Source: a virus. Taken from it: 64,000 nt of DNA. The notes beneath the pieces are model-generated. The model made no database searches, was not told the origin of the DNA, and worked only from the letters and a program-made list of their open reading frames with translations. Positions 2,678 through 64,000 of the stretch are shown here, in pieces. Positions within the stretch are counted from its first letter, which is position 1. Every line of letters starts with the position of its first letter. Both the position numbers and the translations under genes were made by a program. The DNA lies in the IMG/VR virus record IMGVR_UViG_3300010259_000001, positions 2,040 to 66,039 of that record. One strand, given 5' to 3'.

Positions 2678-4730
2678 TATTGTTTATTTTCTTCACTATA
2701 CGAGGTAATTCCATTTCATGATAACATACTTGCATACCTATTGCGCGTGTCATTAGGCGGTCGTCGTGATAACCCTCCATAGCCTCAAACACATTGTTTT
2801 CAGTCTCAACGTATGTAAGATATTCGTCAAGGCACGCTTCTTCTCTCTCGATATACAAGCGTTCCCTTATCACAACTTTCAAATTATAAATCACTACTTT
2901 CTTCGTCAATGGGTTGGTGTGGTAGCCGTACTTCTTGGGCAGTCCTTGCCTAATGTCTTCTGCGCTCTGCTTGCGTGCATATAGTTGTCTGCCGTAAACC
3001 TCATGTATGAGCGTCAAGATATACTCTGCCTCGCCCTTGGTGTTGTTGGTTTCAAGTGTGTTGCTTTCTATCACCAGCAGGGCATTGTTATAATAGGCGG
3101 CTACCTGCGTGGCTTTCCATGCCAGTTTATCCATGTCGATGTGTCCGTGCCATTCTGCGGCGACAACAGGAGGCTCGCCGTCCATCATAAACAGGCGGTC
3201 TATTACAAGTATGTCTGCAAAGTCGGCATTCTTGGTGTGTCCCTTGCATACGTCAACTACTACTAAATATCTGTCTGTTACTTCTTCGGTGTCGCTTCTC
3301 TCTACATCATGCCACATGAACAGCCGTCCGTCTGCCTCTTTCTTGAAGCGAAGTCCCTCAATGGCTTTCTCTCCCTCATCGGCACTTCCGTATATCTCAC
3401 CTATCCAGCGAGGTGCGCGACAAGCAGGTCTGAACTGCTCCACGTCCTCACTGCTGAAAACCTTGCGTCCCGAATAGGTAAATGCCTCGATGTCGTCAGA
3501 TGGGTACTCCGATGCCATGTCGCCATGATTGGTGTACTTGCTACGCTCGGACACATACCAGTGGATGGCTTCAAGCGTTGCACCTTTCTCCCACAACCGC
3601 CAAAGGTATGTACCTGGTTCTTCACGGTCTGACTTGATTTCTTCATTCCGTCTGTTGGCAAATAGTTTCTTGGCAAACTCGTACTTATCCGCTTCATCCT
3701 CGAATGGCAGTTCATACTGTTCAATCTCAAACCATGCAACAAACATCGCCTCAAATTGCGATAGTCCTTTCTTCGCTGCCAAGTATTCTTTGTGGAAGAA
3801 GTTGCCAACGCCGTTTGGCGTTGACTCATACACTATCATGGTGTATGGACGTAGAAGAATACCAGAGCAAGCACTTCGCACAATGTCCTCCGGCTTCTTT
3901 CCGTCTGTCTCTTTCCACAAGGCAACCTCCGAAAGGTGAACAAGGTTATAGTCACCACCACGGCAGGAGTTCGGGCGTTCGGCAGTACCGATTTTGATTT
4001 TGCAGTTTCGTTGTGGTACTCTGAATATGTTGCCCGACTTGCCGACACCAACCATCTTCGGCTCGTTTGGTGCATAAGCATCACCAAGTTCATGCAGCAT
4101 TTCAACCGGGTACGACTTTATCATGCGGTCGAACATGTCCTTGATTTCGTCGGAACCAGTACCTTGATGGGCAATGATGAGAGAGTTGAGACCAACTTCA
4201 TGAACAAGTTGGAGCCATGCCATGTATATCTGAATAGCGGTTGAGCCTCCCCACTGTCTTGCTTTCAGCAGTATCAGTCGGATGGGCTTTCCTGCCTTGC
4301 GCATTTTCTCCAGCCGCTTTATCAACTTACGCTGCGGTCTGTTCAATCTGAAAAGAACGTCTGTTCCTCCACCCTTGCGCTTGATGTAGGCAAACATTGC
4401 TGCCCAAAATGGGTAGTCATGCTTTTGCCTTATCCTTATGAACTCCTCTACAACCTTGTCGCGTGCCTCATCGGTGACAGGCAACATCAGAGCATCGCGA
4501 ATGAAAGCATCAACACTACCAGCCTTTGACAAGGACTTGACAAATGGCTCATCCATCATTTCCACTGGCAGGTACTGCGTGGGGATAGGATAATCAGAAA
4601 CGGTAAAGGCAACACGCTGTCCGATGCTGCCCTCACCAGTTATAGGATTGAACGGCGCAAATACTATTGCGCGTCTGCGCTCGTTCTCCTGTAGTATCTT
4701 ACTGATAGTAATGTCGATAGTTTCTTTCAC
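2628..4730 (-). CDS. terL: terminase large subunit
   Basis: 700 aa. ATPase motif RLILLKARQWGGSTAIQIY. C-terminal RNaseH-like nuclease acidic motifs YLVVVDVCKG...DFADILVIDR and EGYHDDRLMTRAIG. The only in-frame start after the upstream stop is GTG at 4730, 10 nt after the portal stop. TAG stop. Confidence 0.85.
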   Translation of the reverse strand: MKETIDITISKILQENERRRAIVFAPFNPITGEGSIGQRVAFTVSDYPIPTQYLPVEMMDEPFVKSLSKAGSVDAFIRDALMLPVTDEARDKVVEEFIRIRQKHDYPFWAAMFAYIKRKGGGTDVLFRLNRPQRKLIKRLEKMRKAGKPIRLILLKARQWGGSTAIQIYMAWLQLVHEVGLNSLIIAHQGTGSDEIKDMFDRMIKSYPVEMLHELGDAYAPNEPKMVGVGKSGNIFRVPQRNCKIKIGTAERPNSCRGGDYNLVHLSEVALWKETDGKKPEDIVRSACSGILLRPYTMIVYESTPNGVGNFFHKEYLAAKKGLSQFEAMFVAWFEIEQYELPFEDEADKYEFAKKLFANRRNEEIKSDREEPGTYLWRLWEKGATLEAIHWYVSERSKYTNHGDMASEYPSDDIEAFTYSGRKVFSSEDVEQFRPACRAPRWIGEIYGSADEGEKAIEGLRFKKEADGRLFMWHDVERSDTEEVTDRYLVVVDVCKGHTKNADFADILVIDRLFMMDGEPPVVAAEWHGHIDMDKLAWKATQVAAYYNNALLVIESNTLETNNTKGEAEYILTLIHEVYGRQLYARKQSAEDIRQGLPKKYGYHTNPLTKKVVIYNLKVVIRERLYIEREEACLDEYLTYVETENNVFEAMEGYHDDRLMTRAIGMQVCYHEMELPRIVKKINNINAGLVQVPVSAATIG

Positions 4731-40855: not shown

Positions 40856-41293
40856 ATGAACAGTTATTTTGAAGTCGGAGTCCGCTACGACAAGACAATG
40901 GAAGACGGTGTTATCCGCAAGGTAACAGAGAACTACCTTTTGGATGCTCTCTCTTTCACAGAAGCGGAAAAGCGTGCCACTGAGGAAATGGAAGCCTACA
41001 TCAGCGGAGAGTTCAGAGTGGTAACAGAGAAAATTACCAACATCGCAGAGGTGGTTACTACTGACGATGCGTCTGCAGATAAGTTCTACAAAGTTAAGCA
41101 CAGCCTCATCACCATTGACGAGAAAACCGCCAAAGAGAAGAAGCAAGCGCAGTACATCATTATCCAAGCATCCAGTGTTGATGATGCTCGCGACCGCTAT
41201 AAGCAGCATATCAAAGGCTGGCTCGTTGACGTGGTACTGGAGGCTGTCAGCGAAACGAAGTACATGGATTATTTCCCTTATAACAACAATTAA
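40856..41293 (+). CDS. DUF4494-like protein
   Basis: YFEVGVRYDKTMEDGVIRKVTENYLLDALSFTEAEKRATEEM resembles the Bacteroidota DUF4494 N-terminal block (from memory). Confidence 0.55.
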   Translation: MNSYFEVGVRYDKTMEDGVIRKVTENYLLDALSFTEAEKRATEEMEAYISGEFRVVTEKITNIAEVVTTDDASADKFYKVKHSLITIDEKTAKEKKQAQYIIIQASSVDDARDRYKQHIKGWLVDVVLEAVSETKYMDYFPYNNN

Positions 41294-41306
41294 AAATCAA
41301 AAGACA

Positions 41307-41885
41307 ATGAAAAAGTACATTGGAACAAAGGCCATCATGGCTAAGCCGATGGCAAAGAGTGAAGCAGAGAAAGTGTTGAACCGCAGCCTTGCTGACGCAA
41401 AGGGTGGCGAAGACGGCTACCTCGTCGAGTACCCGGACGGCTACAAGTCATGGTCGCCCAAAGAGACGTTTGAGGAGGCTTACAAGGTTGCTGACACATA
41501 CCTCGACCGTATGCGTATTGAGTATGCAGATGTCAAGGATCGCGTTTTGAAACTGCACACGTTCCTGATGTCTGAGGAGTTCAGAGCATTGCCCAAAGAG
41601 AAACAGGCAAAGTTGCAAGCCCAGTGTGGCGCAATGTCCGCCTATGTCGAAATTCTCGGTCAGCGTATCGACGAGGCTAAGATGGAACAGAAACAACAGG
41701 AGGCTGCACAAGCTGCTGCCGCTGCACAGGAGATGCGTGAAAGCCTTGTCGGTCTCACTATCGTAGAGGCTGGTAAGTGTGACTTCTGCCCAAGCGAGAC
41801 AACCAACTGCAAGAAACTTATCCTTGCCGACGGCTCGCACATCTGCGTGAAAGACATGACTAAACAACCCTCTAAAGCACAGTAA
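41307..41885 (+). CDS. hypothetical protein
   Basis: Internal ATG at 41307 (MKKYIGTKAIMAKPM...), 192 aa. Contains GYLVEYPDGYKSWSPKETFEEAY and a C-terminal CDFCPSETTNC...HIC. Confidence 0.6.
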   Translation: MKKYIGTKAIMAKPMAKSEAEKVLNRSLADAKGGEDGYLVEYPDGYKSWSPKETFEEAYKVADTYLDRMRIEYADVKDRVLKLHTFLMSEEFRALPKEKQAKLQAQCGAMSAYVEILGQRIDEAKMEQKQQEAAQAAAAAQEMRESLVGLTIVEAGKCDFCPSETTNCKKLILADGSHICVKDMTKQPSKAQ

Positions 41886-41887
41886 CC

Positions 41888-42508
41888 ATGAGTAAACAAA
41901 TAACTATCCCTGTTCCCGACGGCAAACGTGCCGAGTGGATTAACGGTGTCCTCACTCTTGTTGACGAGCAGAAAGTAGATAACCGTCCTGTAACAGAACG
42001 TATCAAGACGTTTGATGATGCCTGCAATGCGCTGGGCGATGAGCATCCGCTTGTCACACAATACCGTCTTACTGCTGCCGCATACAAAGGCGACCCCATG
42101 ACGGAAGATTTCATTGCCTACCTCAAACTCCGTATCATCGTTGCTGCTCTCAATGAGGGATGGGAACCGAAGTTCACAGAAGATGAGTACAGATACTTCC
42201 CTTGGTTCTACTTCTATACCAAAGAGGAGTGCGACAAGTTAGACGACAAGGAAAAAGGGCGTTGTGTTCTTCGCTCCGGCGACAGCGCGAACTCGGACTA
42301 CGGCTTCGTGGGCTGCGGCGCGATTAACGGTGCTTCGTTCTCGAGTGCCAGCGGCGGCTCGCGGCTTGCCTTCAGAACTCGTGAACTCGCAGCCTACGCA
42401 GGTAGGCAATTCATCGAGGAATGGGCTGACTTTATGTTTAAGCCTCGCACTGGCGAGGAGTTAAACGGAAAGTCAGAAGCAGCGAAAACCACCATCGACT
42501 TCAAATGA
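41888..42508 (+). CDS. DGR target protein 2 (non-structural context)
   Basis: 206 aa. C-terminal GRCVLRSGDSANSDYGFVGCGAINGASFSSASGGSRLAF is the translated VR2. ATGA-coupled to the next gene. Confidence 0.85.
   Translation: MSKQITIPVPDGKRAEWINGVLTLVDEQKVDNRPVTERIKTFDDACNALGDEHPLVTQYRLTAAAYKGDPMTEDFIAYLKLRIIVAALNEGWEPKFTEDEYRYFPWFYFYTKEECDKLDDKEKGRCVLRSGDSANSDYGFVGCGAINGASFSSASGGSRLAFRTRELAAYAGRQFIEEWADFMFKPRTGEELNGKSEAAKTTIDFK
42257..42376 (+). repeat. DGR variable region VR2 plus IMH-like 3' end
   Basis: 42257-42367 aligns without gaps to the reverse complement of TR 55378-55488 (111 nt). There are 18 mismatches, all at TR adenines, and none elsewhere (hand alignment). GGCTCGCGGCTT+GCCTTCAGA is shared with VR1. 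Confidence 0.9.
42392..42407 (+). other. hairpin 15 nt downstream of VR2
   Basis: GCCTAC-gcag-GTAGGC: 6-bp stem, 4-nt loop. Confidence 0.6.
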
Positions 42509-52952: not shown

Positions 52953-53000
52953 CGCTCATAACAACAGTTCGACCTGTTATCTTTTGAGTTGGTCGCCTAT

Positions 53001-53042
53001 ACACAAAGAAAGAGCCACAGGCTTATGGCTACCTGCGGCTCT
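53001..53042 (-). terminator. intrinsic terminator after the 98-aa gene
   Basis: AGAGCCaCAGG-(10 nt)-CCTGcGGCTCT (1 mismatch), followed on the minus strand by ttctttgtgt. Confidence 0.55.
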
Positions 53043-53061
53043 CAAAACCATTTATGTAGTA

Positions 53062-53358
53062 TCAACTATGATGTGGGGTGTCGTAGTTAAAGTAGTATCT
53101 TCCGAATAGGCGCGTGCTGATATAGTAAAGCAAGGCTATCAGCGTGAACCATGTGAGCGCATAGGGGTTACGGCTCTGACGAGTTGATATTTTCTGCATA
53201 TTGAGAAACAGGTTCGTGTCTGCTTCCTTGCGCTGTTCCTCACCACCTCCCTTGTCATACTCGTTGTCATGCAGCACGCACGCTGCATAATACTTCTTGG
53301 CGTATGGGGGCTTGATATATTTCAGCAGACCTTTGGCACAACCGCAACCGTTACTCAT
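53062..53358 (-). CDS. small HD-motif protein with C-terminal TM segment
   Basis: 98 aa. YYAACVLHDNEYDKGG...RKEADTNLF, then LTWFTLIALLYYISTRLF. Confidence 0.55.
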   Translation of the reverse strand: MSNGCGCAKGLLKYIKPPYAKKYYAACVLHDNEYDKGGGEEQRKEADTNLFLNMQKISTRQSRNPYALTWFTLIALLYYISTRLFGRYYFNYDTPHHS

Positions 53359-53848
53359 AGTTCGACATATCTAAACTGTCCTTTTCTGCCCAGCCCTCAT
53401 TGAGACACTGGTTAATGTAGGCGACTGCAGACGTGTAGAAGTCCGTGAAGTCCTCCATGTTTTCAAAGGTGTGGTACACGGCTTTGCCCTCTGCGTCTTC
53501 ACCAAGTTTGAACTTAATAGGCAACATGGCACCACCCATCTGCATATTGAGGTCGAACGCTGCCTTGAAGTTGTTTTGGTTCTCAGCACTCAAATACACA
53601 CGGATGCCTTTCCATGCAAAGCCGTTCAGTATCTTTTCGTCTGTATTGGCGTTGATGGTGTCAATGATAAGGTATTTAACCTCGCTGACGGTGGGCTTAT
53701 AGTCCAGCGTCTGACGGTAGTTATATCCTGTGCCTCCGTCCATGCCGAAGCCATAGAATACTTCCCAGCGTTTACGACCTATCTGCTGTATGCCGTCTCT
53801 GCGTTCTGATGCTCCATAAATCTTTTCCATGCCGCAAAGATACGACAT
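53351..53848 (-). CDS. hypothetical protein (DUF4376-like, speculative)
   Basis: 165 aa directly downstream of the RT. Not helical-bundle-like, so not an Avd. Confidence 0.6.
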   Translation of the reverse strand: MSYLCGMEKIYGASERRDGIQQIGRKRWEVFYGFGMDGGTGYNYRQTLDYKPTVSEVKYLIIDTINANTDEKILNGFAWKGIRVYLSAENQNNFKAAFDLNMQMGGAMLPIKFKLGEDAEGKAVYHTFENMEDFTDFYTSAVAYINQCLNEGWAEKDSLDMSNYE

Positions 53849-53880
53849 AAGACGGCAAATAAGATGTTATCTTTTGTGTA

Positions 53881-55224
53881 TCATGAGAACTTATACTTTA
53901 CCTTGCCTCCGTCAAACACTTCACTGACAATCGTGGTTTCAAATGGGAAACCGTCTTCGATGTCGCTGATTTGGTCGAGGATATTCTTCATTTCCTCAGA
54001 TGCTGTAAAGAACTTGCCCCAGTCGCCTGTCTGCTTGTCACGGAAACTTACCACATAGCGGTCTTCACCCTGCGATGTGTTGATGCCAGTCTCGTAGTCA
54101 TGCACTTCAATAGTTTTGTTCACGATTGCGCCCAAGCGCATTGTCTTACCGGGAAAGCGTTTCTTTCCGTCGGCAGGGGTGTAACTAACACCCATTTCGC
54201 TAAACTTTTTCATTTTCTGATTTGTCAATTTATAAAACAAGTGTTTACAATCAGCATGGCAAGCCATGCCTTTGAATGAGCCAATAATCTCTTGCCGACG
54301 TTTCCGCGACTTCACCTTTGCCAGTTTCCTTGCTGCTTTCTGCTTGATACGCTTGCGCAATAATGAATGGGTGCCATAATGCACATAGCCAAGAAAGTCC
54401 AGTCCAACGTCCAGCGGTCGCACCGCCTCCGATGGCTTAACCTCCAAACCGAGACGTGCCACTGCTGCTATATGAATGTTGCGCAACTCCCACAATTCTT
54501 TTTTCGTGCTGGCAAGCATTACGGTATCATCGCAATACCTGTAATACAAATAATGTGTCTCACCGCCCTTTTCATAGTGTTTAACGTATTTCAGCATTTC
54601 ATGGTCAACCTCATTCAGATAGAGGTTGGCGAAACACTGCGAGGAACGAAGACCCTTTGACAAGCCTTGTGGCATGAGCGTAATGAAACTGTCAAGGATG
54701 GGTAGCAGTATCGGGTCTGAAACATACTTCCTTATTATCTGCATCATCCGCAGTTGGTCGATGCTGTCATAATAATGGTGTATGTCGTTCTGATAGTAGT
54801 ATTGTGATTGTTCGGGAGCATTGGTAAGGTCTTCCTCTACGACGTGGTGCAGCCAGTGCATACCACGTCCCTTGATGCTTGCTGCCGTGTTCTTGATGAG
54901 CGTAGGGTATGTGTACTTCTCTATCACTACCATGATGGCATGGATGCCAACACGCTTCACTACCGTTGGGGCTTGCACATCGCGCTCTTTGTAGCCCTCA
55001 GTTACATGCAGGTCGCGAACATCGCTACGCACAATACGAAAAGAACCTGCACTGATTTCTCTGCGTAGGCTCTCTATTATCGTCAGACGTTTAGGTCTGT
55101 ACATTTCCCGTTGTCTTGGATGTTCAAGGTGACTGATAACGTAGTCGAAACTTTCACCCATGTTCTCCTCGCTGACAATTTCGGGAATTAGATTGTCGAG
55201 AGGAAATCTAATGTCATAGTCCAT
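53881..55224 (-). CDS. DGR reverse transcriptase
   Basis: 447 aa. LSKGLRSSQCFANLYLNEVDH (DGR-type G-x-x-x-SQ block) and YLYYRYCDDTVMLAS (Y-x-DD). TR lies 150 nt upstream on the same strand. Confidence 0.9.
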   Translation of the reverse strand: MDYDIRFPLDNLIPEIVSEENMGESFDYVISHLEHPRQREMYRPKRLTIIESLRREISAGSFRIVRSDVRDLHVTEGYKERDVQAPTVVKRVGIHAIMVVIEKYTYPTLIKNTAASIKGRGMHWLHHVVEEDLTNAPEQSQYYYQNDIHHYYDSIDQLRMMQIIRKYVSDPILLPILDSFITLMPQGLSKGLRSSQCFANLYLNEVDHEMLKYVKHYEKGGETHYLYYRYCDDTVMLASTKKELWELRNIHIAAVARLGLEVKPSEAVRPLDVGLDFLGYVHYGTHSLLRKRIKQKAARKLAKVKSRKRRQEIIGSFKGMACHADCKHLFYKLTNQKMKKFSEMGVSYTPADGKKRFPGKTMRLGAIVNKTIEVHDYETGINTSQGEDRYVVSFRDKQTGDWGKFFTASEEMKNILDQISDIEDGFPFETTIVSEVFDGGKVKYKFS

Positions 55225-55374
55225 GCCTTCAGGACACTTAGTTATGTTTCGGCTTTCTACATTATGTAGGGTTGCCGAGGCTCAAACCCTTCGCCCTTGC
55301 GGTCAGTGTACACGACACTGGTGTATAGGAACGATATTAAACAGTCTGCCTCCGAAAGACAGATGTATCTTGCT

Positions 55375-55489
55375 GGTAAGCCGCGAGCCGTTGTTGGTAT
55401 TCGAGTTCGAAGCATCGTTATTCGCGTTGCAGTTCACGAAGCCGTTGTTCGAGTTCGTGTTGTTGCCGGAGCGAAGAACACAACGCCCA
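55375..55489 (-). repeat. DGR template repeat (TR)
   Basis: The coding-sense copy is Asn-codon rich (29 adenines in the 111-nt core by my count). It is identical to VR1 and VR2 at every non-adenine position. Confidence 0.9.
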
Positions 55490-55521
55490 CGAGGGTTATC
55501 CACCTGCTTAAAAAGCAAGTG

Positions 55522-55529
55522 CAAAGGTA
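55522..55529 (-). promoter_or_regulatory. -7 box (TACCTTTG on minus strand) upstream of TR
   Basis: The plus strand reads CAAAGGTA, about 33 nt upstream of the TR 5' end and downstream of the fibre terminator. Confidence 0.4.
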
Positions 55530-55580
55530 CGAATATTTGTCATACTTACGCACTTTGCACCCCCACTATTAGCATTTTTT

Positions 55581-55609
55581 CAAAAAAAATCGAGCCGCTT
55601 ACGCGGCTT
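55581..55609 (-). terminator. intrinsic terminator of fibre gene
   Basis: AGCCGC-ttac-GCGGCT, followed on the minus strand by T8 (plus-strand a8 at 55582-55589). Confidence 0.75.
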
Positions 55610-55615
55610 TAGCGG

Positions 55616-55647
55616 AGAGTGAGCAGCCTTTTCAAGGCTCTCACTCT
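55616..55647 (-). other. 14-bp hairpin between fibre stop and terminator
   Basis: AGAGTGAG-c-AGCCTT-ttc-AAGGCT-CTCACTCT (one bulge). Confidence 0.65.
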
Positions 55648-55663
55648 GACGCTTTGCCGCTTG

Positions 55664-58600
55664 CTACTCAACGAACTCGATTTCGCCTCTGAAGGCAAGC
55701 CGCGAGCCGCAGTTGGTATTCGAGTTCGAAGCATCGTTATACGCGACGCAGTACACGAAGCCGACGTACGAGTTCGTGACGCCGCCGGAGCGAAGAACAC
55801 AACGCCCAGTTGAAGCGGAGTAGTATTGACCATCACAATAATAGGTGTTGTAATTGGAATTAGACACCGTCTTACTCGGCACAACATCACAGAACCGTCC
55901 ATGTCGGACACGACAAACTTCTTGGTCGGAATTGTTTACGCCTTGCACGGCTCGTTCCGTACCATCTGCCATTCTGATGCGCCAGATATGGTCAACAACG
56001 CTGCCGCTTGGCACTTGGCTCTTGTTCTTCTTGTAGGCATCGAAACTTGCAACATTCACAGCCACATTGTCCATCCACTCCCATGCACAACCCCACCAGT
56101 CTTCAAGTCCTAATGTGCGAGGTCTGCCGGTAGTTGTCTCATAGAAAGGCGAACGGTTTGCGCCATCCGTCGTACCTGTATTGACCACACCAACGCCGAC
56201 ACCATTCACGGCTTGCGAGTTTCTGCGTCCGTGAATAGCCATCCACAGGTTAGCGATGTCCTTGTGCATTTCGTAGTCCACAAGTTGATAACCCTTGCCA
56301 CGGCACTGCACGATGTTTTGGAAGTCCTTGCAAGTGAAGTTCAGACTGGTGCCAGCCTGTGGCAGGTTATTCGTCACGTTGCCGTTCTCGTCGTACTTCC
56401 AAATGTTGCTGGTGCTTGAAGTGCCTGTGCCTCGCTTTGGTATCGCACCGCTGATGGAACGAAGACGGTTGAGGTTATCAACACTTCCTTTGTACACGCC
56501 AATTAGTTCAAACTGGTGTTCCACCCAGTCGGGTTCAATGGCTTCAACGGCTGCACTATCTACAGCGATGCACTCTAAATCGTCGTAGCCCTGTGGTGTG
56601 CAGAACACGAACTTGGCTGCACCTGCCGGCACATCGACAAAGACATATTCACCTTGTACGAAATCGCTGTTGGCGTGAGTGATGTAGGTGTAAACGGTGC
56701 TAATCACCTTGTCATTCTTGTCAAGGAACACTGCACCGATAAGGTTGCTGTTGATACCAGGCCACCTTACCTGCTTCATGTTCTCTACATCCATGCTGTA
56801 AACATTGTTGGCACTGCTGTCTGTCAAATTGTCAGCATCGAACACATCGCCAACATTGAAGTTGCCGACATATACACTTGAAAGACTTTTCACTAACAGG
56901 TTGCTCAACGTGTCTCGGTTTACGTTACGAGCGGTAGAACTTGGAGTATTTGTTTCTGTTGAGAAAGCAATATACTTCTTATTGTTCACATGGTCGTTGA
57001 TACCCTTGTACCAGTAGTGAGGCAAGCCAAGGAACAAGTCGTAACCAGTACCATTAGTGTCTGTAATGTCAAGGTCAAGACCGTTGGCAAGGTGGTACAG
57101 GTCACTGTCACTTACCTGCTCCAACTGCATCTTATTGGTACTTTCATTGAAAGTTCCTTTATATACATGCAACTGGCTTTGCAGTTTGGTGATGTGTCCG
57201 CTTGGGATATAACCGTCGTCAACGCCGTCAGTGGTATTGTTGTCGAGGTTTCGGATATTGCCGTCAAACTCCATTGCATCGTCAAACTCTATCAACGTAT
57301 ATTGCGCATTGTATAGCGTGAGGTTCGGGAAGTATGCTACAAGATTGGCAAAGATGGCATCCTCAACGAGGTTGCTCATAATCCAACTGCCGTTCATGCC
57401 GTCGCAAACATTTGTCTGCTCACTTCCTATTCCGCGAGTGCCAAGGCTCTGCATGGTTTCAAGGGTTCTGCTGTTGCCTGTCATATCGTAACTGTCTATC
57501 TGCACTTCTGCAAGACGTGCGCCAGCATTGATAACATCGGCAAGCAACTGTTGCGCGTCTATGCTCGGGCAACCGCTTAACTGTATGCGAGTGACGTTCG
57601 CCAATCCATCAAATGATACACCGCCATTGGGATAGCCAAGACTGGGCAGGTTCACGAATGACAGTTCCGTCATGCTTGATGGCAAAGTCAGCGTCTGCAA
57701 GGGTGACGATTGCGCAGAACTGAAAGAGCGAAGCGAGCTGCCGCTTGCCTGTACTTTCTTCAAGCGTGGGCAACCACTGGCATTCAGCGTCAGCACCTTG
57801 GTATTTCTGATGTCTATCTCTTCTAAGAATGGCATCTGTCCGAGGCTCAACGCTGACAGTATGTCGTCGGTGTACGATGGCGTATAACTCTCTCCACCGA
57901 TGATGAGTTTCCGCAATAGCGTACAGTCGGCTATAACCCAGTTGCTGTTTTTCGGTGTACAGCCGCTTAAATCAAGTTCGCTCAGTTTATCAGCACCGAA
58001 GATATAGATAAGTTTACCACCGACACCTGCAGCAGCCTCAGTAAAGGTGTGGCTCTCACCTGCGCGCAGATAGCATGAATACTTTGCGCTGCTGGTGCTG
58101 TCAACGCCCATGCCAAAGTAACCGTCCTGTGCTGCCGTAATCTTCACGGTGATGGCTCCCATCACACGCGCTTGGAAGAAATGCTTGAACAGGTCGCCTG
58201 TCTGATAGTAGCCGTCGCGGTAGGCGAAACGCTTGCGCTGGAATGCTGGCAGACTTTCAAGACGCAAACCGTGCAGTGCCGGATAGTGGTTGTCTGCTGC
58301 CGTCGCGGTCTCGATATACTTGCGCTGGCCGTCGAAGCTGCTCACTACCTTTGCCCACTTCAAGATGCGGTTTGTCATCCAGTAACGGTAGCTGCCTGCT
58401 GCACTGAATATCTCCAGTCCTGCGCCTGTCTTGGCAGAACGCATGGCGGCGGCGGTATTATGCAAGGTCAGTTGTGTGCCGTTATCATCAATCCAAACGC
58501 CCTCGCCTCTTTCAAACAGGGCAAACGACTGGCGGAACATCACACCGTCCCAACCTTGGTACAGGTGGCTGTTCGCTCCGTCCATATCCCAAGGGATAGT

Positions 58601-61600
58601 CAGATAACAGTCGTTGTCGGCCTCGTCAACACTATCACCATCATACCAGTGGTTGAAGTAGTAGCGCATGTTGCCGTCAGTCTCTTTATAGACTGCTATC
58701 ATCATGTTCTTGGCTCGCTGGTCAACGGTAGCCTTATAATCCGATGCCACAATATAGTGGTTCGTGCTGTAAGGGTTGAAGTAGTGGTGCATCTCATGCT
58801 GCCACTTCAACAGACGGTTGGTCTTGGTTCCTGCTACGGTATTGCCGTCAAGGGTGATGGTGAGCGATGCACCGTCACCGTTGAAAATCTTTTCGCTGCC
58901 GTCGGGGTTCAGTGCGGCATTCTCTTCGTGGTCGTCCGTGAGGTTCTGATTACACTGCTGACAGAATAACAGTTCACGGAACAACTGATAAGGTACCTTT
59001 CTACCCTGTGCGTACAGGTCGTTCAAATCATCATCGTCGGGGTAACGGCTCTCGTAGTATGTTGACCAGATAGGCACGTCGCCATCATCGGTGTGCAGCG
59101 TTTCAAGCATATCATCGACGCTGTTCACACCCTGCTGCCAACAGAACTCTTGATACTGGCGATACTCGTAACACTCAACAGGGTTAAGCACTCTGCCTAC
59201 AATCACCCACTTGCCAGTGCTGCTCTCGTAGGTCATGCTGCCTGTGGTGTCGCGCCATACGCCACCAGTGTACTTGTAGTACTTGCCGTCGGTGCTGCGA
59301 TAGACAGTTGCCCAGTCGTAATCGCTGACATCATCTGCAGCAATCTCTGCGCCTGTTTTGTCAACCTCAACGAACTCGGCTACGGCATCGGTCTCTGTCA
59401 TGGCTCCTGTGCCGTCGTTCTCTATGAAGCGCGTCTCGGGGCCACAGAACTCACTAATCATATAGAGCATTCCGGGGATAAGCGATGCTGAACCAGCAAG
59501 CACCGTTGCCTTGTAAGCGTCAATGTTGGTGCCTCGCGGTGTAACAATCTCCTTGAAATCGCCATAGTTCACACAGCCCTTGTTGTAGCCAGGCACATCT
59601 TCGAAGCCGAAGAAATGGGGGTTGCCCTTGTCGGCATTGAAGTTAGCCTTGCTGTGGAAGTAGGCGTTTTCGGGAAGCGTAGCGGCCTCGGAACCTTTCT
59701 CCTGTCCGATGCGGTAGTCCGTGCGGAACAATGCACAGGTAACACCATCAATGGAGGTGTGCAGCTCCTCGCTGCTATCAGTGTTGAATATCTGTGCAGG
59801 GGTCATGTAGTTTCTACCCAAGGCAATCTGAACATCATTCATCTGCTCCATCAGTGCACAGTTATTCGCACCGGCACTGTCCGAATAGTCCACCTTGATA
59901 GTGATGGTGCTGATAGGGGTGCTGCCGTCCTTGATGCGTATCTTCTTCTTTGCAGCGAGTTTCACTGCCTCGTCGTACTTGGCAAGAATGGTTTCGTCGC
60001 CATTATACATCTTGCTGACCTCTTCGCGCGTATGCAGCATGACAATGCGCTTGGCTTTCTTTGCCTTGCCTTTCTTGTTCTTGATTGCGTAGGCAAGTGT
60101 AGATGTACCTTGGTTCGTAACGGGGATAGCCTCAATCATACAGTCTGCCCAAGGACGGTCGGGGAAGTACAGATACCAGTCCATAAGCACCTGTGTCTTC
60201 TTGTCCTTGATATTCTCGATATAGTCGGGATAGTATATCTCGCTATCCGTCACGGCTGCACCGTCCTTGCTCAGATTGGCATCAGAAGTGCGTGTCTCAA
60301 CACAAACCATCACACCACGGTCAATCAACTTCTGCATATCGGGGCGAGGTTTCGTCACACCCTCTGCCGTAATGTCTGCCATCACTTGGTTCTGCTCATA
60401 CTCGGTAAGCATAGCCTGCGTGTCGGTAAGGTTCACGATGTAGTTGTTGAATGCCTGTATAAAGTCATAGTAGGTGTTCCAGCGCACAATCTCATATAGA
60501 TAAAGGTCGGCATCACTGCCGTCAAAGTGGATGGTGTCGCCAAATACAGGGAATGCGCTGCTGGTGTCTATTGGCACACAAGCAGCCATATCACCGTTTT
60601 GGAAGACTTTGCAAAGCATCACTCCACTGTAAGGAGCGCGTGCTTGCGGCTCTATCACGATGTCAAATCGGTACACCACATCGTCAAGATATGAGGTCGC
60701 GGCTGTTGTATGTACGTTGGCGAGTGCCTCATCGCTATCACCGTTTGTAGTGACGATGAACTTCTCACCAGTAAGCACGAAGCCGAGACGCTCACCAAGA
60801 CACTTGATGATATGAGCGTTTCGCTTAGCGATGTTCTTCACCTTGAACGTCATTGAAAGAGCAAGTCCATTGGTAGGGATAGAGGTGCTGGCAAAAGGCT
60901 GGTCGGTACACTCTGCAGTGACGTTCTCTGCCACACGTAGCGACATGCGACCACCGCTCTGCTCGGTACCGAACGTATCAAGCACAAAGCCGTTGGTGGA
61001 GTAGTTCGAGCCGGTAACAACAATCTCTTTCTCCGTGCCGTCGGTGGCTTGGGTCTTGATGGTCTTGTCGGTGTCGGTGTTGCTCCTACCTGCGAGGCTT
61101 ATCTTATACAAGGCTCCCTCGGTCTCGGCAATATCCAGCAGCGAACCGTTGACAAGCACCTCGCGCGTCTCTGCCAAAGAGGCAACGCCGCAGGTGGCAT
61201 CGAAAGTAAGAGTGTCGCCCTGACTGTAACCAACGACGCGCTTCTCTATCGTGTAGTACCTGTTGCGGTACATAGAACTCTCACTAAGGGTCTCTGTCGT
61301 GTCTGTGGTCTCGTTGGTCATGGTAACCTCTACGACGCATGGGTTCTTGCTACGTTGGTAGCAGGCAAGGTCTATCTTCAGAGTCTCAAAGAGTTTCACT
61401 TCGCCGTCGCTGTCGTCGCTCCATCGTGCCACAACAATAGGCTTGTCGTAGTCGGCAACTTCCTCACGCTGCTCTATCACCATCACTGCGGTATGCAGCA
61501 CGTTACCTCGCGTGCCGCTGGCTACGTCGGTACCCTGTATGCGGATGGGGTATGCACCATGTCCTAACCCTGTCGGGTCGATGCTCACATTGTGGGGATA

Positions 61601-64000
61601 GGTGTCGTTGACAACAACGTCCTGTAGCGTTTCCCAGTCGCCGTTCTTGTATATCTCCACAACGGTTCTGATACCTCTGTCACTGGCATTGTTCGGGAAG
61701 CGATACATCGGGATAGATGTTTTCTGTCCTCCCACCTGTAACGAGGTCTCACGTGTATAGTTGAGGGTCTGCACACTCTCGCACGTTACATCAACGGCAA
61801 TAATGCTGATGTTCTTTGTGGCGGTGTTGCCTCCATCGTCAGTGATAACAGCTTGCAGGGGCAATTCTCCTGCGTTCTGACACAGGCTACTCAAATCGAA
61901 CTCAAAGGAGTAGTCGGTAAGTGTGGCACTCGATGCCTTTCTCGGATTGAAGAAAGCAACGGTACTCTTCGTGGTGCGGTTCACGAAGTTTACACTCATG
62001 ATGCTGTTCGATGTCTCTTGACTGCCTGCCTTGGTAACAGACATGATGGCAGCTTTCACGAGGAACGAGCCACCTGCCTTGCCGTAGAAAGGATTATCCT
62101 TGAACGCTACGGCAATGGTAGTACCTGTGCCACCACCGCTGCCGGTGCCGACATTAAACTGTATCTCGTCGCCTACATCGTCGCCCTCGGCATTAACAAG
62201 TTTCAGCTTCACTACACCCTCGGTCTCGGTGTCAACGTCCAGTCCAGCAGGGATATGGGTGTATGCACCACCAGTAGAGAGTGCATCTTCACCGTCTTTC
62301 TCCGGCTCGTCGCTGGTCTCTACCTCGCTTCCACCTCCGAAGTCTTTCCACAAACCTATCTCACCGAAGCCTGTCACCTCGCCTTGGAACTGTTTTGTTT
62401 CCATCACATTCTCGGCGGTGCGGTAACTGATGATAAGTCCTTTCTTGGCATAGCTCACACCTGTCTCACGCTGATATTCTATCAGTCGCGTAACGGCTGT
62501 TGCCAGCGTGTAGAACTCACCTGCCACTGGTGCGCCTATCATATCGTCGATGATGATGTAGGTCTCGCTGCCTGCGGCAAGACTTCCAAAGTCTTTCCAA
62601 TTCTCGGAGTTATACCAGTTGACTTCGTTCACGGTCTTACCAATGAACTGATAGGTTTTCCATATTCCCGAACCTACCTCAAAGCTGATGATAAGTCCGC
62701 TGGTCGCTTTCTTAGCGTTCCATGCTGCATGAACGGCTGATATGCCTGTGTTCTCGGTGTCGCACAGTACATAGTAACCACTGATGGGAACTTGGTTGGT
62801 AACATTGAAGATACCGCTGGAGCTGGAGCCACCAATCTGCTTCAAGTCTGCATCGTCGGCATCGTACATATAGATGTCGCTGCCAAGGATATATAGCTTC
62901 TCGGTGTATGGAGTAGTGGTGTTTGGCTGCATCCACTTGTCTTGCGTATTCCAGGCATTGTAGTATTTACCATCGCGCTTCACGACGAACTGCCCAAGGC
63001 TCTCTGAAAAGTAAACATCGGACGGAAATACATTCGTAATTCCTGTCTTCTGTATGGTGATTGCGCCTGTCACGATGCCACCAATCTTAATAGCGTGATG
63101 CGCCTTGTTATCGGCTTCAAGAGCCTCATCGCCATCCACCACTATACGATTAAGTTCTGTGATGCGGTCGTCCAATTCATCAAGGTTGTCGTAGATTTCC
63201 GAGCCAAACAGCTCCTGCACCCATTCGGGAACATCACTACCTTGGTAATGGCCATCGAATAAAAATGGGTCATTTGCACCGTCGGTGGAATAACACACAC
63301 ATTCAACGACACGTGTTCCAAATCGGCTTGCCATCGTTTCGTCACCTCGATGCAAACAGAACACTATCCATGTAGTATCACCATCCGACAATGTGCAAAG
63401 ACGGCACTCTACAGGATAGCCGTTATATACATACGCACCAGCCTTTGGCAACACGGAGTTTTCTTCCATGTAGTTGGAAAGTTCTACGATGTACGCTTTC
63501 TTCTGCTCGTCTGTTGAGAGTGATTGTAAGGCCGCGGCGGCAGTTGACATTTGCTGTGCAAGTGCCGTGATGTTGGTCTCGTTCGTGTCTGCCTTGCTCT
63601 TGGCTGCATTGGCGGTATTCTGTACGTTGTTCAGTTGGTTGCCAAGCGTCGTAAGCTGCTGCGTGTGACTGGTGATGTTGGTCTCGGCGGTCTGTACCCT
63701 TGCCGCTACCTCGTCAATATCCTCCTGCAACTGCGCAACGCCCTCGGTGTACTGGCTCATGTCAACAGTGACTTCTATTGTGCCACCTGTGGCAACCCAG
63801 TCACCACCATTGCCGATGTAGGCAGTGAAAGGTGTTGAGGCACCGACACCTGCCATCCAGCCGTCATGAGGATTGGGATATGCCTCGCGCAAGGCTTGAA
63901 CAGTAAGGAACACGCCCTTGTTAGCACCCTTGATGTTAGGTGCTTCAAGCCACCCATCTACTTTGAGATTGTGGCCGATGTGAGTACTTCCGGCTATCTC
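55664..64000 (-). CDS. tail fibre / receptor-binding protein, DGR target 1 (5' end beyond window)
   Basis: The ORF-track start at 63913 is GTG. I translated upstream and the frame stays open to nt 64000 (EIAGSTHIGHNLKVDGWLEAPNIKGANKG-VFLTVQ...). N-terminal coiled coil (TQQLTTLGNQLNNVQNTANAAKSKADTNETNITALAQQ). TAG stop. Confidence 0.85.
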   Translation of the reverse strand, partial: EIAGSTHIGHNLKVDGWLEAPNIKGANKGVFLTVQALREAYPNPHDGWMAGVGASTPFTAYIGNGGDWVATGGTIEVTVDMSQYTEGVAQLQEDIDEVAARVQTAETNITSHTQQLTTLGNQLNNVQNTANAAKSKADTNETNITALAQQMSTAAAALQSLSTDEQKKAYIVELSNYMEENSVLPKAGAYVYNGYPVECRLCTLSDGDTTWIVFCLHRGDETMASRFGTRVVECVCYSTDGANDPFLFDGHYQGSDVPEWVQELFGSEIYDNLDELDDRITELNRIVVDGDEALEADNKAHHAIKIGGIVTGAITIQKTGITNVFPSDVYFSESLGQFVVKRDGKYYNAWNTQDKWMQPNTTTPYTEKLYILGSDIYMYDADDADLKQIGGSSSSGIFNVTNQVPISGYYVLCDTENTGISAVHAAWNAKKATSGLIISFEVGSGIWKTYQFIGKTVNEVNWYNSENWKDFGSLAAGSETYIIIDDMIGAPVAGEFYTLATAVTRLIEYQRETGVSYAKKGLIISYRTAENVMETKQFQGEVTGFGEIGLWKDFGGGSEVETSDEPEKDGEDALSTGGAYTHIPAGLDVDTETEGVVKLKLVNAEGDDVGDEIQFNVGTGSGGGTGTTIAVAFKDNPFYGKAGGSFLVKAAIMSVTKAGSQETSNSIMSVNFVNRTTKSTVAFFNPRKASSATLTDYSFEFDLSSLCQNAGELPLQAVITDDGGNTATKNISIIAVDVTCESVQTLNYTRETSLQVGGQKTSIPMYRFPNNASDRGIRTVVEIYKNGDWETLQDVVVNDTYPHNVSIDPTGLGHGAYPIRIQGTDVASGTRGNVLHTAVMVIEQREEVADYDKPIVVARWSDDSDGEVKLFETLKIDLACYQRSKNPCVVEVTMTNETTDTTETLSESSMYRNRYYTIEKRVVGYSQGDTLTFDATCGVASLAETREVLVNGSLLDIAETEGALYKISLAGRSNTDTDKTIKTQATDGTEKEIVVTGSNYSTNGFVLDTFGTEQSGGRMSLRVAENVTAECTDQPFASTSIPTNGLALSMTFKVKNIAKRNAHIIKCLGERLGFVLTGEKFIVTTNGDSDEALANVHTTAATSYLDDVVYRFDIVIEPQARAPYSGVMLCKVFQNGDMAACVPIDTSSAFPVFGDTIHFDGSDADLYLYEIVRWNTYYDFIQAFNNYIVNLTDTQAMLTEYEQNQVMADITAEGVTKPRPDMQKLIDRGVMVCVETRTSDANLSKDGAAVTDSEIYYPDYIENIKDKKTQVLMDWYLYFPDRPWADCMIEAIPVTNQGTSTLAYAIKNKKGKAKKAKRIVMLHTREEVSKMYNGDETILAKYDEAVKLAAKKKIRIKDGSTPISTITIKVDYSDSAGANNCALMEQMNDVQIALGRNYMTPAQIFNTDSSEELHTSIDGVTCALFRTDYRIGQEKGSEAATLPENAYFHSKANFNADKGNPHFFGFEDVPGYNKGCVNYGDFKEIVTPRGTNIDAYKATVLAGSASLIPGMLYMISEFCGPETRFIENDGTGAMTETDAVAEFVEVDKTGAEIAADDVSDYDWATVYRSTDGKYYKYTGGVWRDTTGSMTYESSTGKWVIVGRVLNPVECYEYRQYQEFCWQQGVNSVDDMLETLHTDDGDVPIWSTYYESRYPDDDDLNDLYAQGRKVPYQLFRELLFCQQCNQNLTDDHEENAALNPDGSEKIFNGDGASLTITLDGNTVAGTKTNRLLKWQHEMHHYFNPYSTNHYIVASDYKATVDQRAKNMMIAVYKETDGNMRYYFNHWYDGDSVDEADNDCYLTIPWDMDGANSHLYQGWDGVMFRQSFALFERGEGVWIDDNGTQLTLHNTAAAMRSAKTGAGLEIFSAAGSYRYWMTNRILKWAKVVSSFDGQRKYIETATAADNHYPALHGLRLESLPAFQRKRFAYRDGYYQTGDLFKHFFQARVMGAITVKITAAQDGYFGMGVDSTSSAKYSCYLRAGESHTFTEAAAGVGGKLIYIFGADKLSELDLSGCTPKNSNWVIADCTLLRKLIIGGESYTPSYTDDILSALSLGQMPFLEEIDIRNTKVLTLNASGCPRLKKVQASGSSLRSFSSAQSSPLQTLTLPSSMTELSFVNLPSLGYPNGGVSFDGLANVTRIQLSGCPSIDAQQLLADVINAGARLAEVQIDSYDMTGNSRTLETMQSLGTRGIGSEQTNVCDGMNGSWIMSNLVEDAIFANLVAYFPNLTLYNAQYTLIEFDDAMEFDGNIRNLDNNTTDGVDDGYIPSGHITKLQSQLHVYKGTFNESTNKMQLEQVSDSDLYHLANGLDLDITDTNGTGYDLFLGLPHYWYKGINDHVNNKKYIAFSTETNTPSSTARNVNRDTLSNLLVKSLSSVYVGNFNVGDVFDADNLTDSSANNVYSMDVENMKQVRWPGINSNLIGAVFLDKNDKVISTVYTYITHANSDFVQGEYVFVDVPAGAAKFVFCTPQGYDDLECIAVDSAAVEAIEPDWVEHQFELIGVYKGSVDNLNRLRSISGAIPKRGTGTSSTSNIWKYDENGNVTNNLPQAGTSLNFTCKDFQNIVQCRGKGYQLVDYEMHKDIANLWMAIHGRRNSQAVNGVGVGVVNTGTTDGANRSPFYETTTGRPRTLGLEDWWGCAWEWMDNVAVNVASFDAYKKNKSQVPSGSVVDHIWRIRMADGTERAVQGVNNSDQEVCRVRHGRFCDVVPSKTVSNSNYNTYYCDGQYYSASTGRCVLRSGGVTNSYVGFVYCVAYNDASNSNTNCGSRLAFRGEIEFVE
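55688..55808 (-). repeat. DGR variable region VR1 plus IMH-like 3' end
   Basis: 55697-55807 aligns to TR 55378-55488 (offset 319). There are 13 mismatches, all at TR adenines. Encodes GGVTNSYVGFVYCVAYNDASNSNTNCGSRL. Confidence 0.9.
56066..56110 (-). other. FGE/C-type-lectin-fold signature in fibre C-terminal domain
   Basis: GLEDWWGCAWEWMDN resembles the G-x-x-D-M-x-GNVWEW block of FGE-sulfatase-type DGR targets. Confidence 0.55.
57560..57990 (-). other. leucine-rich-repeat-like segment in fibre
   Basis: LSELDLSGCTPKN...LEEIDIRNTKVLTLNASGCPRLKKVQASGSSLRSF...LQTLTLPSSMTELSFVNLPSL...VTRIQLSGCPSI. Confidence 0.5.

Follow-up and report, generated by a model that had tools for sequence, protein, structure and literature searches.

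A diversity-generating retroelement with one template and two variable repeats in a temperate gut Bacteroidales phage

Virus record IMGVR_UViG_3300010259_000001 carries, within the 64,000-nucleotide stretch analyzed here (positions 2,040 to 66,039 of the record; hereafter the window), a diversity-generating retroelement (DGR) in which a single template repeat (TR) serves two variable repeats (VRs). The first, VR1, lies beside the TR and the reverse transcriptase (RT) gene, near the 3' end of the gene for a giant putative tail or receptor-binding protein (target 1). The second, VR2, lies ~13 kb away and inverted relative to the TR, within the gene for a small protein of the replication and methyltransferase module (target 2). 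The genome is that of a temperate gut Bacteroidales phage of ~64-66 kb, most of which the window covers. We consider it highly probable that the element is an active DGR in this lineage, a view supported directly by its anatomy, by an adenine-only pattern of substitution, by the transfer of TR markers into the VRs of relatives and by population hypervariability.

Compared without gaps on the minus strand, TR and VR1 are collinear 111-nt repeats offset by 319 nt. They differ at 13 positions (7 A>T and 6 A>G), each an adenine in the TR, while the 82 non-adenine positions of the TR are all unchanged in VR1. The hypergeometric probability of 13/13 mismatches landing on the 29 adenines is 2.3e-9. 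A repeat search lengthens the TR repeat by 1-3 nt at either end, giving 55375-55489, and the 208-nt gap between VR1 and TR contains no open reading frame (ORF). The initial annotation, made from the window's sequence, had described this repeat pair with its 13 differences, as well as an RT gene 3' of the TR after about 150 nt with an SQ block and a YCDD motif; both descriptions were reproduced, the RT ATG lying 153 nt past the TR end. It had further taken VR1 to be the last ~111 nt of the fiber gene, of which the length holds but not the gene end, as ten codons and a stop (55664-55696) follow.

The codon design of the TR speaks for a DGR as well. In the target frame, 29/29 adenines fall at codon position 1 or 2, for which the chance expectation is (2/3)^29 = 8e-6. 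They occupy 16 variable codons (13 AAC/AAT, 2 ACN and 1 GAT), from which ~1.25e17 peptides can be reached. Because TR adenines sit only in AAY, ACN and GAT codons, stop codons cannot arise from their substitution.

VR2 was found by scanning both strands for the non-adenine positions of the TR, the repeat search having returned the direct pair only. It is in frame within target 2 and departs from the TR at 18 positions (14 A>G and 4 A>T), 18/18 at TR adenines (P = 1.5e-13). The initial annotation had bounded the element at 53881-55808, which takes in VR1, TR and RT and falls short of the whole by leaving out this second VR on the plus strand. It was accurate and correctly interpreted, yet incomplete, having missed VR2, the spacer RNA and the absence of an accessory gene described below. 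We also considered and rejected homology of the two target proteins outside the VR, as BLASTP similarity spans the VR and no more than a few flanking residues.

Homology between TR and VR stops in an adenine-free, GC-rich block, GGCTCGCGGCTT, after which VR1 reads GCCTTCAGA and the TR reads ACCAGCAAG, as had been reported. The ends of VR1 and VR2 are both GGCTCGCGGCTTGCCTTCAGA, the TR end is GGCTCGCGGCTTACCAGCAAG, and the 21-mer shared by the VR ends differs from the TR at 5 of its last 9 positions; this arrangement is kept in relatives. Paired initiation of mutagenic homing sequences, IMH at the VR and IMH* at the TR, give DGRs their direction (Guo 2011). The IMH/IMH*-like reading proposed from the VR1 end is strengthened here, since two independent VRs carry one post-homology sequence unlike that of the TR.

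Evidence for activity comes from relatives, which were gathered by protein-guided scans of IMG/VR. Contigs L003, L004, L005 and L009 have RTs 96-99% identical to that of the window, L087 and L089 represent the second target gene on contigs of those RT relatives, and further VR1 alleles were retrieved from metagenomes by a DNA anchor downstream of VR1. Diversity was compared across independent public assemblies rather than within-sample reads. Among six VR1 alleles on nearly one TR, 27/29 adenine sites vary and only 1/82 non-adenine sites. This single exception, position 89, is a T/C polymorphism of the TR itself, mirrored by the VRs of each genome. Similarly, the L004 TR has an A>T change at position 42, and T is found in its VR1 and its VR2 (L089) as well. 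A third TR polymorphism, G/T within the GC block (position 104), also reappears in the VR, showing that information transfer reaches within 7 nt of the homology end. Relatives with RTs ~99% identical have at most one single-nucleotide polymorphism (SNP) in the TR compared to the window, and their VRs differ at 11-21 sites.

Divergence was also compared along the element. The RT of the window diverges from those of L004/L009 by 2.2%, the TR by 0.9% and the spacer by 0.7%, with VR1 differing at 17-20 sites, all TR adenines except one that mirrors a TR SNP. Within the target gene, divergence reaches 28% over the 1 kb immediately upstream of VR1 and ends precisely where TR homology begins. Continual overwriting predicts such a sharp 5' boundary, and we conclude that the VR is being rewritten from the TR. 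This boundary and the SNPs passed from TR to VRs constitute indirect evidence for cDNA synthesis from TR RNA and for retrohoming.

VR2 was tested by in-register display and protein-level entropy. Across 120 homologs of target 2, column entropy reaches 2.4-3.1 bits for the 13 AAY codons and 0.85-1.4 bits at the three single-adenine codons, versus a mean of 0.13 bits outside TR-adenine codons. The prediction of the initial annotation, that diversity would be confined to TR-adenine sites with the TR itself invariant, came out as expected for VR1 and VR2 alike. A nucleotide tabulation of VR2 alleles was set aside, as its 40 variable non-adenine sites were attributed to distant lineages with their own TRs and to out-of-register copies.

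Three further observations concern the VR alleles. At TR-adenine sites, VR1 alleles (window and L148-L155) have A in 52%, T in 25%, G in 20% and C in 3% of cases, and C is about 3% too in the VR2 set (L082-L095), a looser set with spurious non-adenine variation; A-to-C changes are strongly under-represented. VR1 of L003/L147 (IMGVR_UViG_3300045988_068249) has an in-frame 18-nt (6-codon) deletion relative to the TR, either a real allele or an assembly artifact. L093 (IMGVR_UViG_3300026549_000532, 3370-3531), a candidate for an unmutated VR2 with all 29 adenines, was rejected and discarded as an assembly jump from VR2 to TR because the TR-specific ACCAGCAAG follows, at a contig end.

Table 1. 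Positions of the retroelement's parts, its target genes and flanking features in the window
Feature	Position	Strand	Basis
TR (template repeat, 29 adenines, non-coding)	55378..55488	-	ungapped comparison
VR1 (codons 2703-2739 of target 1)	55697..55807	-	13/13 mismatches at TR adenines
VR2 (aa 124-160 of target 2)	42257..42367	+	82/82 non-A positions match TR
IMH-like end of VR1 (GGCTCGCGGCTT + GCCTTCAGA)	55688..55708	-	identical 21-mer at VR2 end
IMH-like end of VR2	42356..42376	+	same 21-mer as VR1; kept in relatives
IMH*-like end of TR (GGCTCGCGGCTT + ACCAGCAAG)	55369..55389	-	kept in TRs of L147, L148, L149, L151, L155
DGR reverse transcriptase, 447 aa, intact single ORF	53881..55224	-	Pfam RVT_1; phrog_1423 at 1e-90
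RT C-terminal extension, ~113-115 aa	53884..54222	-	phrog_19665 at 2.9e-17; missing from BPP-1 bRT
Spacer RNA, Rfam RF03068 (RT-3 RNA), overlaps RT start codon	55218..55336	-	55.4 bits, E 2.6e-10
Target gene 1, putative tail / receptor-binding protein, 2749 aa from first GTG	55664..63913	-	ORF list, PHROG matches
Target gene 2, 206 aa, replication/methyltransferase module	41888..42508	+	phrog_11581 at 2.8e-51
Inverted repeat downstream of VR1 (hairpin/cruciform candidate)	55617..55646	-	DNA fold 55590-55700: -32.4 kcal/mol, z = -5.35
Intrinsic terminator of target gene 1, AGCCGC-GTAA-GCGGCT + T run	55582..55608	-	terminator scan
Inverted repeat downstream of VR2, GCCTAC-GCAG-GTAGGC, nested in longer stem	42392..42407	+	DNA fold z = -3.24
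Candidate Bacteroidetes-type -7 box TACCTTTG (TAnnTTTG), 34 nt upstream of TR	55522..55529	-	pattern match only
DUF4376 gene, conserved neighbor directly downstream of RT	53351..53848	-	Pfam DUF4376

The RT carries the motifs GLRSSQ, GLSKGLRSSQCFANLYLN and YYRYCDDT. It is 28% identical to the bRT of Bordetella phage BPP-1, with the diagnostic GLSKGLRSSQCFANLY (motif 4) aligned to GIPIGSLTSQLFANVY and YCDD to YMDD (G..SQ.FAN, Y.DD), and 45-54% identical to the RTs of Hankyphage and Bacteroides phage BS-TP4; among annotated proteins, DGR RTs are nearest to it. C-terminal extensions of unassigned function occur in about 20% of DGR RTs (Wu 2018). The extension seen here, with 73% mean column identity across 17 relatives, is common to Hankyphage, BS-TP4 and every relative examined. 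Across the clade this domain is conserved more than the RT core (55% against 45-48% in comparison with Hankyphage) and has the invariant motifs P.DGKKRF.G and KF.T.S.EMK.IL; its profile recovered no sequence relative from PDB or Pfam. The DUF4376 gene accompanies the RT in BS-TP4 as well, and BKO1-TP1 and BX-TP1/2 have DUF4376 annotations beside their RT match. It is a conserved neighbor and at most a candidate part of the DGR.

The 153-nt spacer between TR and RT contains an RT-3 RNA whose 55.4 bits exceed the RF03068 gathering score of 40.5. The same motif occupies the same position in 14/16 relatives scanned, reaching 146.6 bits in Hankyphage, and its inner stem shows compensatory changes and covarying pairs. 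RT-10 has been placed at the corresponding position of BPP-1, and other RT motifs were speculated to serve other DGRs (Weinberg 2017). RT-3 is clearly one of the RNA motifs that do. Two IMG/VR contigs whose RT is 34% identical (L080/L081) carry the Rfam RT-17 RNA upstream of the RT and not RT-3, such that DGR RT subclades appear paired with different spacer RNA families.

Other signals flank the repeats. On the VR1 side, inverted repeats begin ~40 nt and ~80 nt past the IMH and double as a terminator. In the VR2 hairpin a GCAG loop caps a stem of 6 bp, and the region that contains it is conserved among relatives. The candidate -7 box upstream of the TR follows TAnnTTTG, the -7 consensus of Bacteroides promoters; a sigma-70-type promoter scan of the TR region found none.

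Target 2 sits between a crAss001_48-like gene and a C5 methylase gene, with a replication initiator, a DnaC-like loader and an N6/N4 methylase also nearby. The product of the gene directly upstream (41067-41885, +) has a Pfam crAss001_48-related domain (E 8.8e-17) and also matches nine function-unassigned PHROGs. Public data contain 6378 homologs of target 2, of which the closest 120 are 86-100% identical and fall mostly in singleton clusters; one variant is from a Prevotellaceae metagenome-assembled genome (MAG). AlphaFold2 models reached a mean confidence (pLDDT) of 49.7 when 120 close homologs were aligned and of 60.6 with a wider alignment of 80 sequences, and, because the VR segment scored <50 both times, no fold is called. 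Foldseek of the second model against PDB gave only matches with E>1, and neither a profile of 29 diverse homologs searched against PDB sequences nor per-member Pfam scans returned anything credible.

We propose a model where a transcript with the TR, the RT-3 spacer RNA and the RT mRNA would begin past the terminator of target gene 1. The RT would copy the TR to cDNA, faithfully save for misincorporation opposite adenines, and this cDNA would replace the homologous VR, with direction set by the IMH at the VR (GGCTCGCGGCTT-GCCTTCAGA) versus the IMH* at the TR (…ACCAGCAAG). In this manner, one TR would rewrite both the C-terminal ligand-binding region of the tail-associated giant protein and, on the opposite strand, a non-structural protein in the DNA-modification and replication module. 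The RNA intermediate, priming by the spacer RNA and RT misincorporation are taken over from the literature on BPP-1 and Hankyphage, from which we also infer the putative biological roles, host-range adaptation for VR1 and phage-host conflict for VR2. It is tempting to speculate further that retrohoming is Avd-independent, with the RT C-terminal domain and RT-3 RNA in the role of Avd, and that target 2 is an intracellular diversified binder acting in phage-host conflict, for instance in counter-defense. We offer this combination tentatively, as a possibility rather than an expectation. The intracellular-binder reading fits because the small target is tied to DNA-modification genes in unrelated phage lineages.

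Several points weigh against the model as drawn. No Avd homolog was detected among 30 small ORFs of the window (Pfam and NCBIfam, E<=0.01), the families sought being Pfam 23S_rRNA_IVP and the TIGRFAM four-helix-bundle family, which we take to be those of Avd type. The BPP-1 mechanism therefore cannot transfer unchanged, and the element, previously called complete, is so with respect to RT, TR, VR and spacer RNA but not to this accessory gene. Avd is present in ~74% of DGRs, and Avd-less DGRs have been catalogued (Wu 2018). The inverted repeats after VR1 and VR2 bear only a loose likeness to the target-recognition hairpin of BPP-1 and depart from its consensus, in which a GC stem of 7-10 bp with a GRNA loop of 4 nt stands 4-34 bp past the VR (Guo 2011). 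A C-type lectin fold of the VR regions is not confirmed by the low-scoring models or by Pfam and PDB searches; the sole support is indirect, in that target 1 is homologous to the target of Hankyphage, reported as a C-type lectin (Benler 2018, PMC6199706). The putative tail-fiber role of target 1 draws on the name given to a PHROG and on a homolog whose own fiber function is putative. Finally, as a single sequence of this genome is available, the evidence for activity applies to the lineage rather than to this individual phage.

The function of target 1 is where a different reading carries the most weight. The DGR may be real and its large target not a receptor-binding fiber at all but a mucus or glycan adhesin, or another large multi-domain virion protein, whose diversification brings no switch of host range. 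Most of the protein matches only phrog_14959, a function-unassigned PHROG (E=0 over aa 428-2749), and no credible Pfam match was found; phmmer searches of the C-termini of both targets against PDB also returned no match. The Hankyphage homolog is unlike characterized proteins and mucus adherence was proposed for it (Benler 2018, PMC6199706), while Bacteroides DGR targets of >2000 aa form a multi-domain group with kinase-like and carbohydrate-binding motifs (Macadangdang 2024). Yet the C-terminal 270 aa (aa 2470-2741) match phrog_5302, 'tail protein', its gene closes the late region, with the lysis genes immediately downstream, and the Hankyphage homolog has been called a putative tail fiber (PMC12135933). 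The C-terminal 500 aa are homologous to that protein (27% identity, E 8e-41) and to BS-TP4 gp14 (44% identity, E 3e-122). We judge the non-fiber reading unlikely, though it deserves to be taken seriously, and keep the 'fiber' label of the initial annotation as a putative one, consistent with the 'tail protein' PHROG and the Hankyphage homology.

The 1 kb of target gene 1 upstream of VR1 (55808-56807, -) is 28% divergent from L003, L004 and L009, in which RT, TR and spacer are 98-99% identical to those of the window. The receptor-binding scaffold upstream of VR1 thus appears, from these comparisons, to be exchanged or fast-evolving, with the VR slaved to the TR.

Far less probable is a fossil DGR, in which the VRs were diversified in an ancestor, the element is now inactive and the differences between genomes reflect recombination among old alleles. 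The single genome sequence, the undetected Avd and the atypical hairpins would suit such a history. However, the RT ORF, TR, IMH/IMH* and RT-3 RNA are intact and 98-99% conserved in relatives whose VRs are fully reshuffled, and recent TR SNPs have already been copied into VRs. Further, hundreds of distinct VR2 alleles exist on a background ~90% identical or more, and the Hankyphage homolog is active in culture. Ordinary duplication, or gene conversion among paralogous C-terminal domains, without reverse transcription and with mismatches placed by chance, can be dismissed. Phage tail genes do swap modules and the region upstream of VR1 is mosaic, but all 31 mismatches of VR1 and VR2 hit adenines of a single non-coding copy (P 2e-9 and 1.5e-13, statistics that refute this reading). 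That copy sits immediately 5' of an RT gene, and the polarity is the same in every relative examined.

An active DGR with two targets, then, is the reading we carry to a comparison with known systems, among which its parts all have precedents. The RT, RT-3 RNA and giant target are Hankyphage-like and the remote small target is Quimbyvirus/LoVEphage-like, so that, judged by sequence, the element is a combination of known modules. Hankyphage p00 of Bacteroides (Phocaeicola) dorei (BK010646) has the same order of a giant target with C-terminal VR, a short gap, TR, RT-3 RNA and RT. The RT-3 RNA stretch is ~150-210 nt, and the Hankyphage RT, 45.5% identical to the window's, bears the same C-terminal extension. 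The window has the phrog_19665 RT domain, RT-3 RNA and homologous >2000-aa target that define the Hankyphage-type subgroup. Experiments in culture have shown that the DGR of Hankyphage diversifies its VR (PMC12135933; Lamy-Besnier/Ghigo lab 2025). The two phages differ in other respects. VR and TR measure 116-117 nt in Hankyphage and 111 nt here; Hankyphage is a 43-kb Mu-like transposable phage, whereas the window belongs to a ~64-66 kb phage with a tyrosine-integrase-like gene; and a small ORF between VR and TR of Hankyphage has been called Avd-like, in contrast to the ORF-free gap here. One VR is annotated in Hankyphage, in which tblastn found no target 2 homolog.

The second target finds its parallel elsewhere. 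Quimbyvirus has two VRs, one in a structural-module gene and one in a small gene on the opposite strand, the latter lying among methyltransferases in a 'defense-related' island (Benler 2021, PMC8008677). As in the window, one TR of Quimbyvirus/LoVEphage (MW660583) serves two VRs, and the structural-module VR is at the C-terminus of its gene beside the RT. The small target of LoVEphage is a homolog of target 2 (36-40% identity), found amid cytosine and adenine methylases, and we verified that it is an adenine-only VR of LoVEphage's own, unrelated TR. The phrog_11581 family is for this reason a recurrent DGR target in different phage lineages. The LoVEphage RT, 36% identical to that of the window, was matched in three tblastn pieces, and RTs of the Quimbyvirus/LoVEphage type are split over three overlapping reading frames (Benler 2021, PMC8008677), while the RT here is a single ORF. 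The adjacent LoVEphage target is a 439-aa 'tail collar fiber protein', far shorter than target 1.

BPP-1 shares with the window the order mtd(VR)-…-TR-spacer RNA-RT, adenine-specific mutagenesis, the AAC codon design, a GC-rich IMH at the 3' end of the VR and an inverted repeat after it. It differs in encoding Avd (bbp7) between VR and TR, where none is detectable here, in a bRT of 328 aa that lacks the C-terminal extension, in a spacer RNA assigned to RT-10 (Weinberg 2017) instead of RT-3, and in having a single DGR target. Closer still are BS-TP4 (PQ571277) and BKO1-TP3 (PQ571269), phages with genomes of ~64-65 kb and RTs 53-54% identical including the C-terminal domain. BS-TP4 has a 2645-aa target homolog (44% over the C-terminus), an RT-3 RNA and DUF4376 and endolysin genes downstream, although a RelE toxin/XRE regulator pair (L001, 8968-9628) stands between its target gene and TR/RT in place of the 208-nt gap. 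Neither phage has a target 2 homolog by tblastn or nucleotide-level similarity to the window. Targets that are not adjacent but lie in the same prophage have been catalogued, as have Avd-less cassettes and RTs with C-terminal extensions (Wu 2018).

The element leaves the current understanding of DGRs unchanged and will not surprise the field, as its kind has been described in Hankyphage and the Quimby/LoVE phages. As a natural instance of a phage DGR with two targets, it is clean and well populated. Since hundreds of near-identical public genomes differ in their VRs, with TR SNPs copied into both, the lineage amounts to a ready-made natural marker-transfer dataset, which may be useful to study cDNA integration boundaries, the working of an Avd-less DGR and the role of a small diversified protein in a methylase module.

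As for the phage itself, the window encodes a tyrosine-integrase-like protein, TerL, portal, RecT, helicase, replication initiator, DnaC-like loader, two DNA methylases and an endolysin. The MAGs in which RT relatives were found belong to Prevotella, Muribaculaceae, Bacteroidaceae, Rikenellaceae and other Bacteroidales. Megablast of 53000-58000 gave no match among deposited phages, and for lack of a nucleotide-level match relatives were sought at the protein level. By RT, the closest cultured ones are the Bacteroides phages BS-TP4 and BKO1-TP3, followed by Hankyphage. Directly upstream of the portal and TerL genes, a single ORF of 6696 aa spans 6774-26864 (-). Its N-terminal ~1750 aa have no PHROG match. 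The segment at ~aa 1960-5160 matches PHROG 10089, 'DarB-like antirestriction', with methyltransferase and helicase segments, and ~150 aa (~aa 1990-2150) match endolysin, minor head and virion-protein PHROGs.

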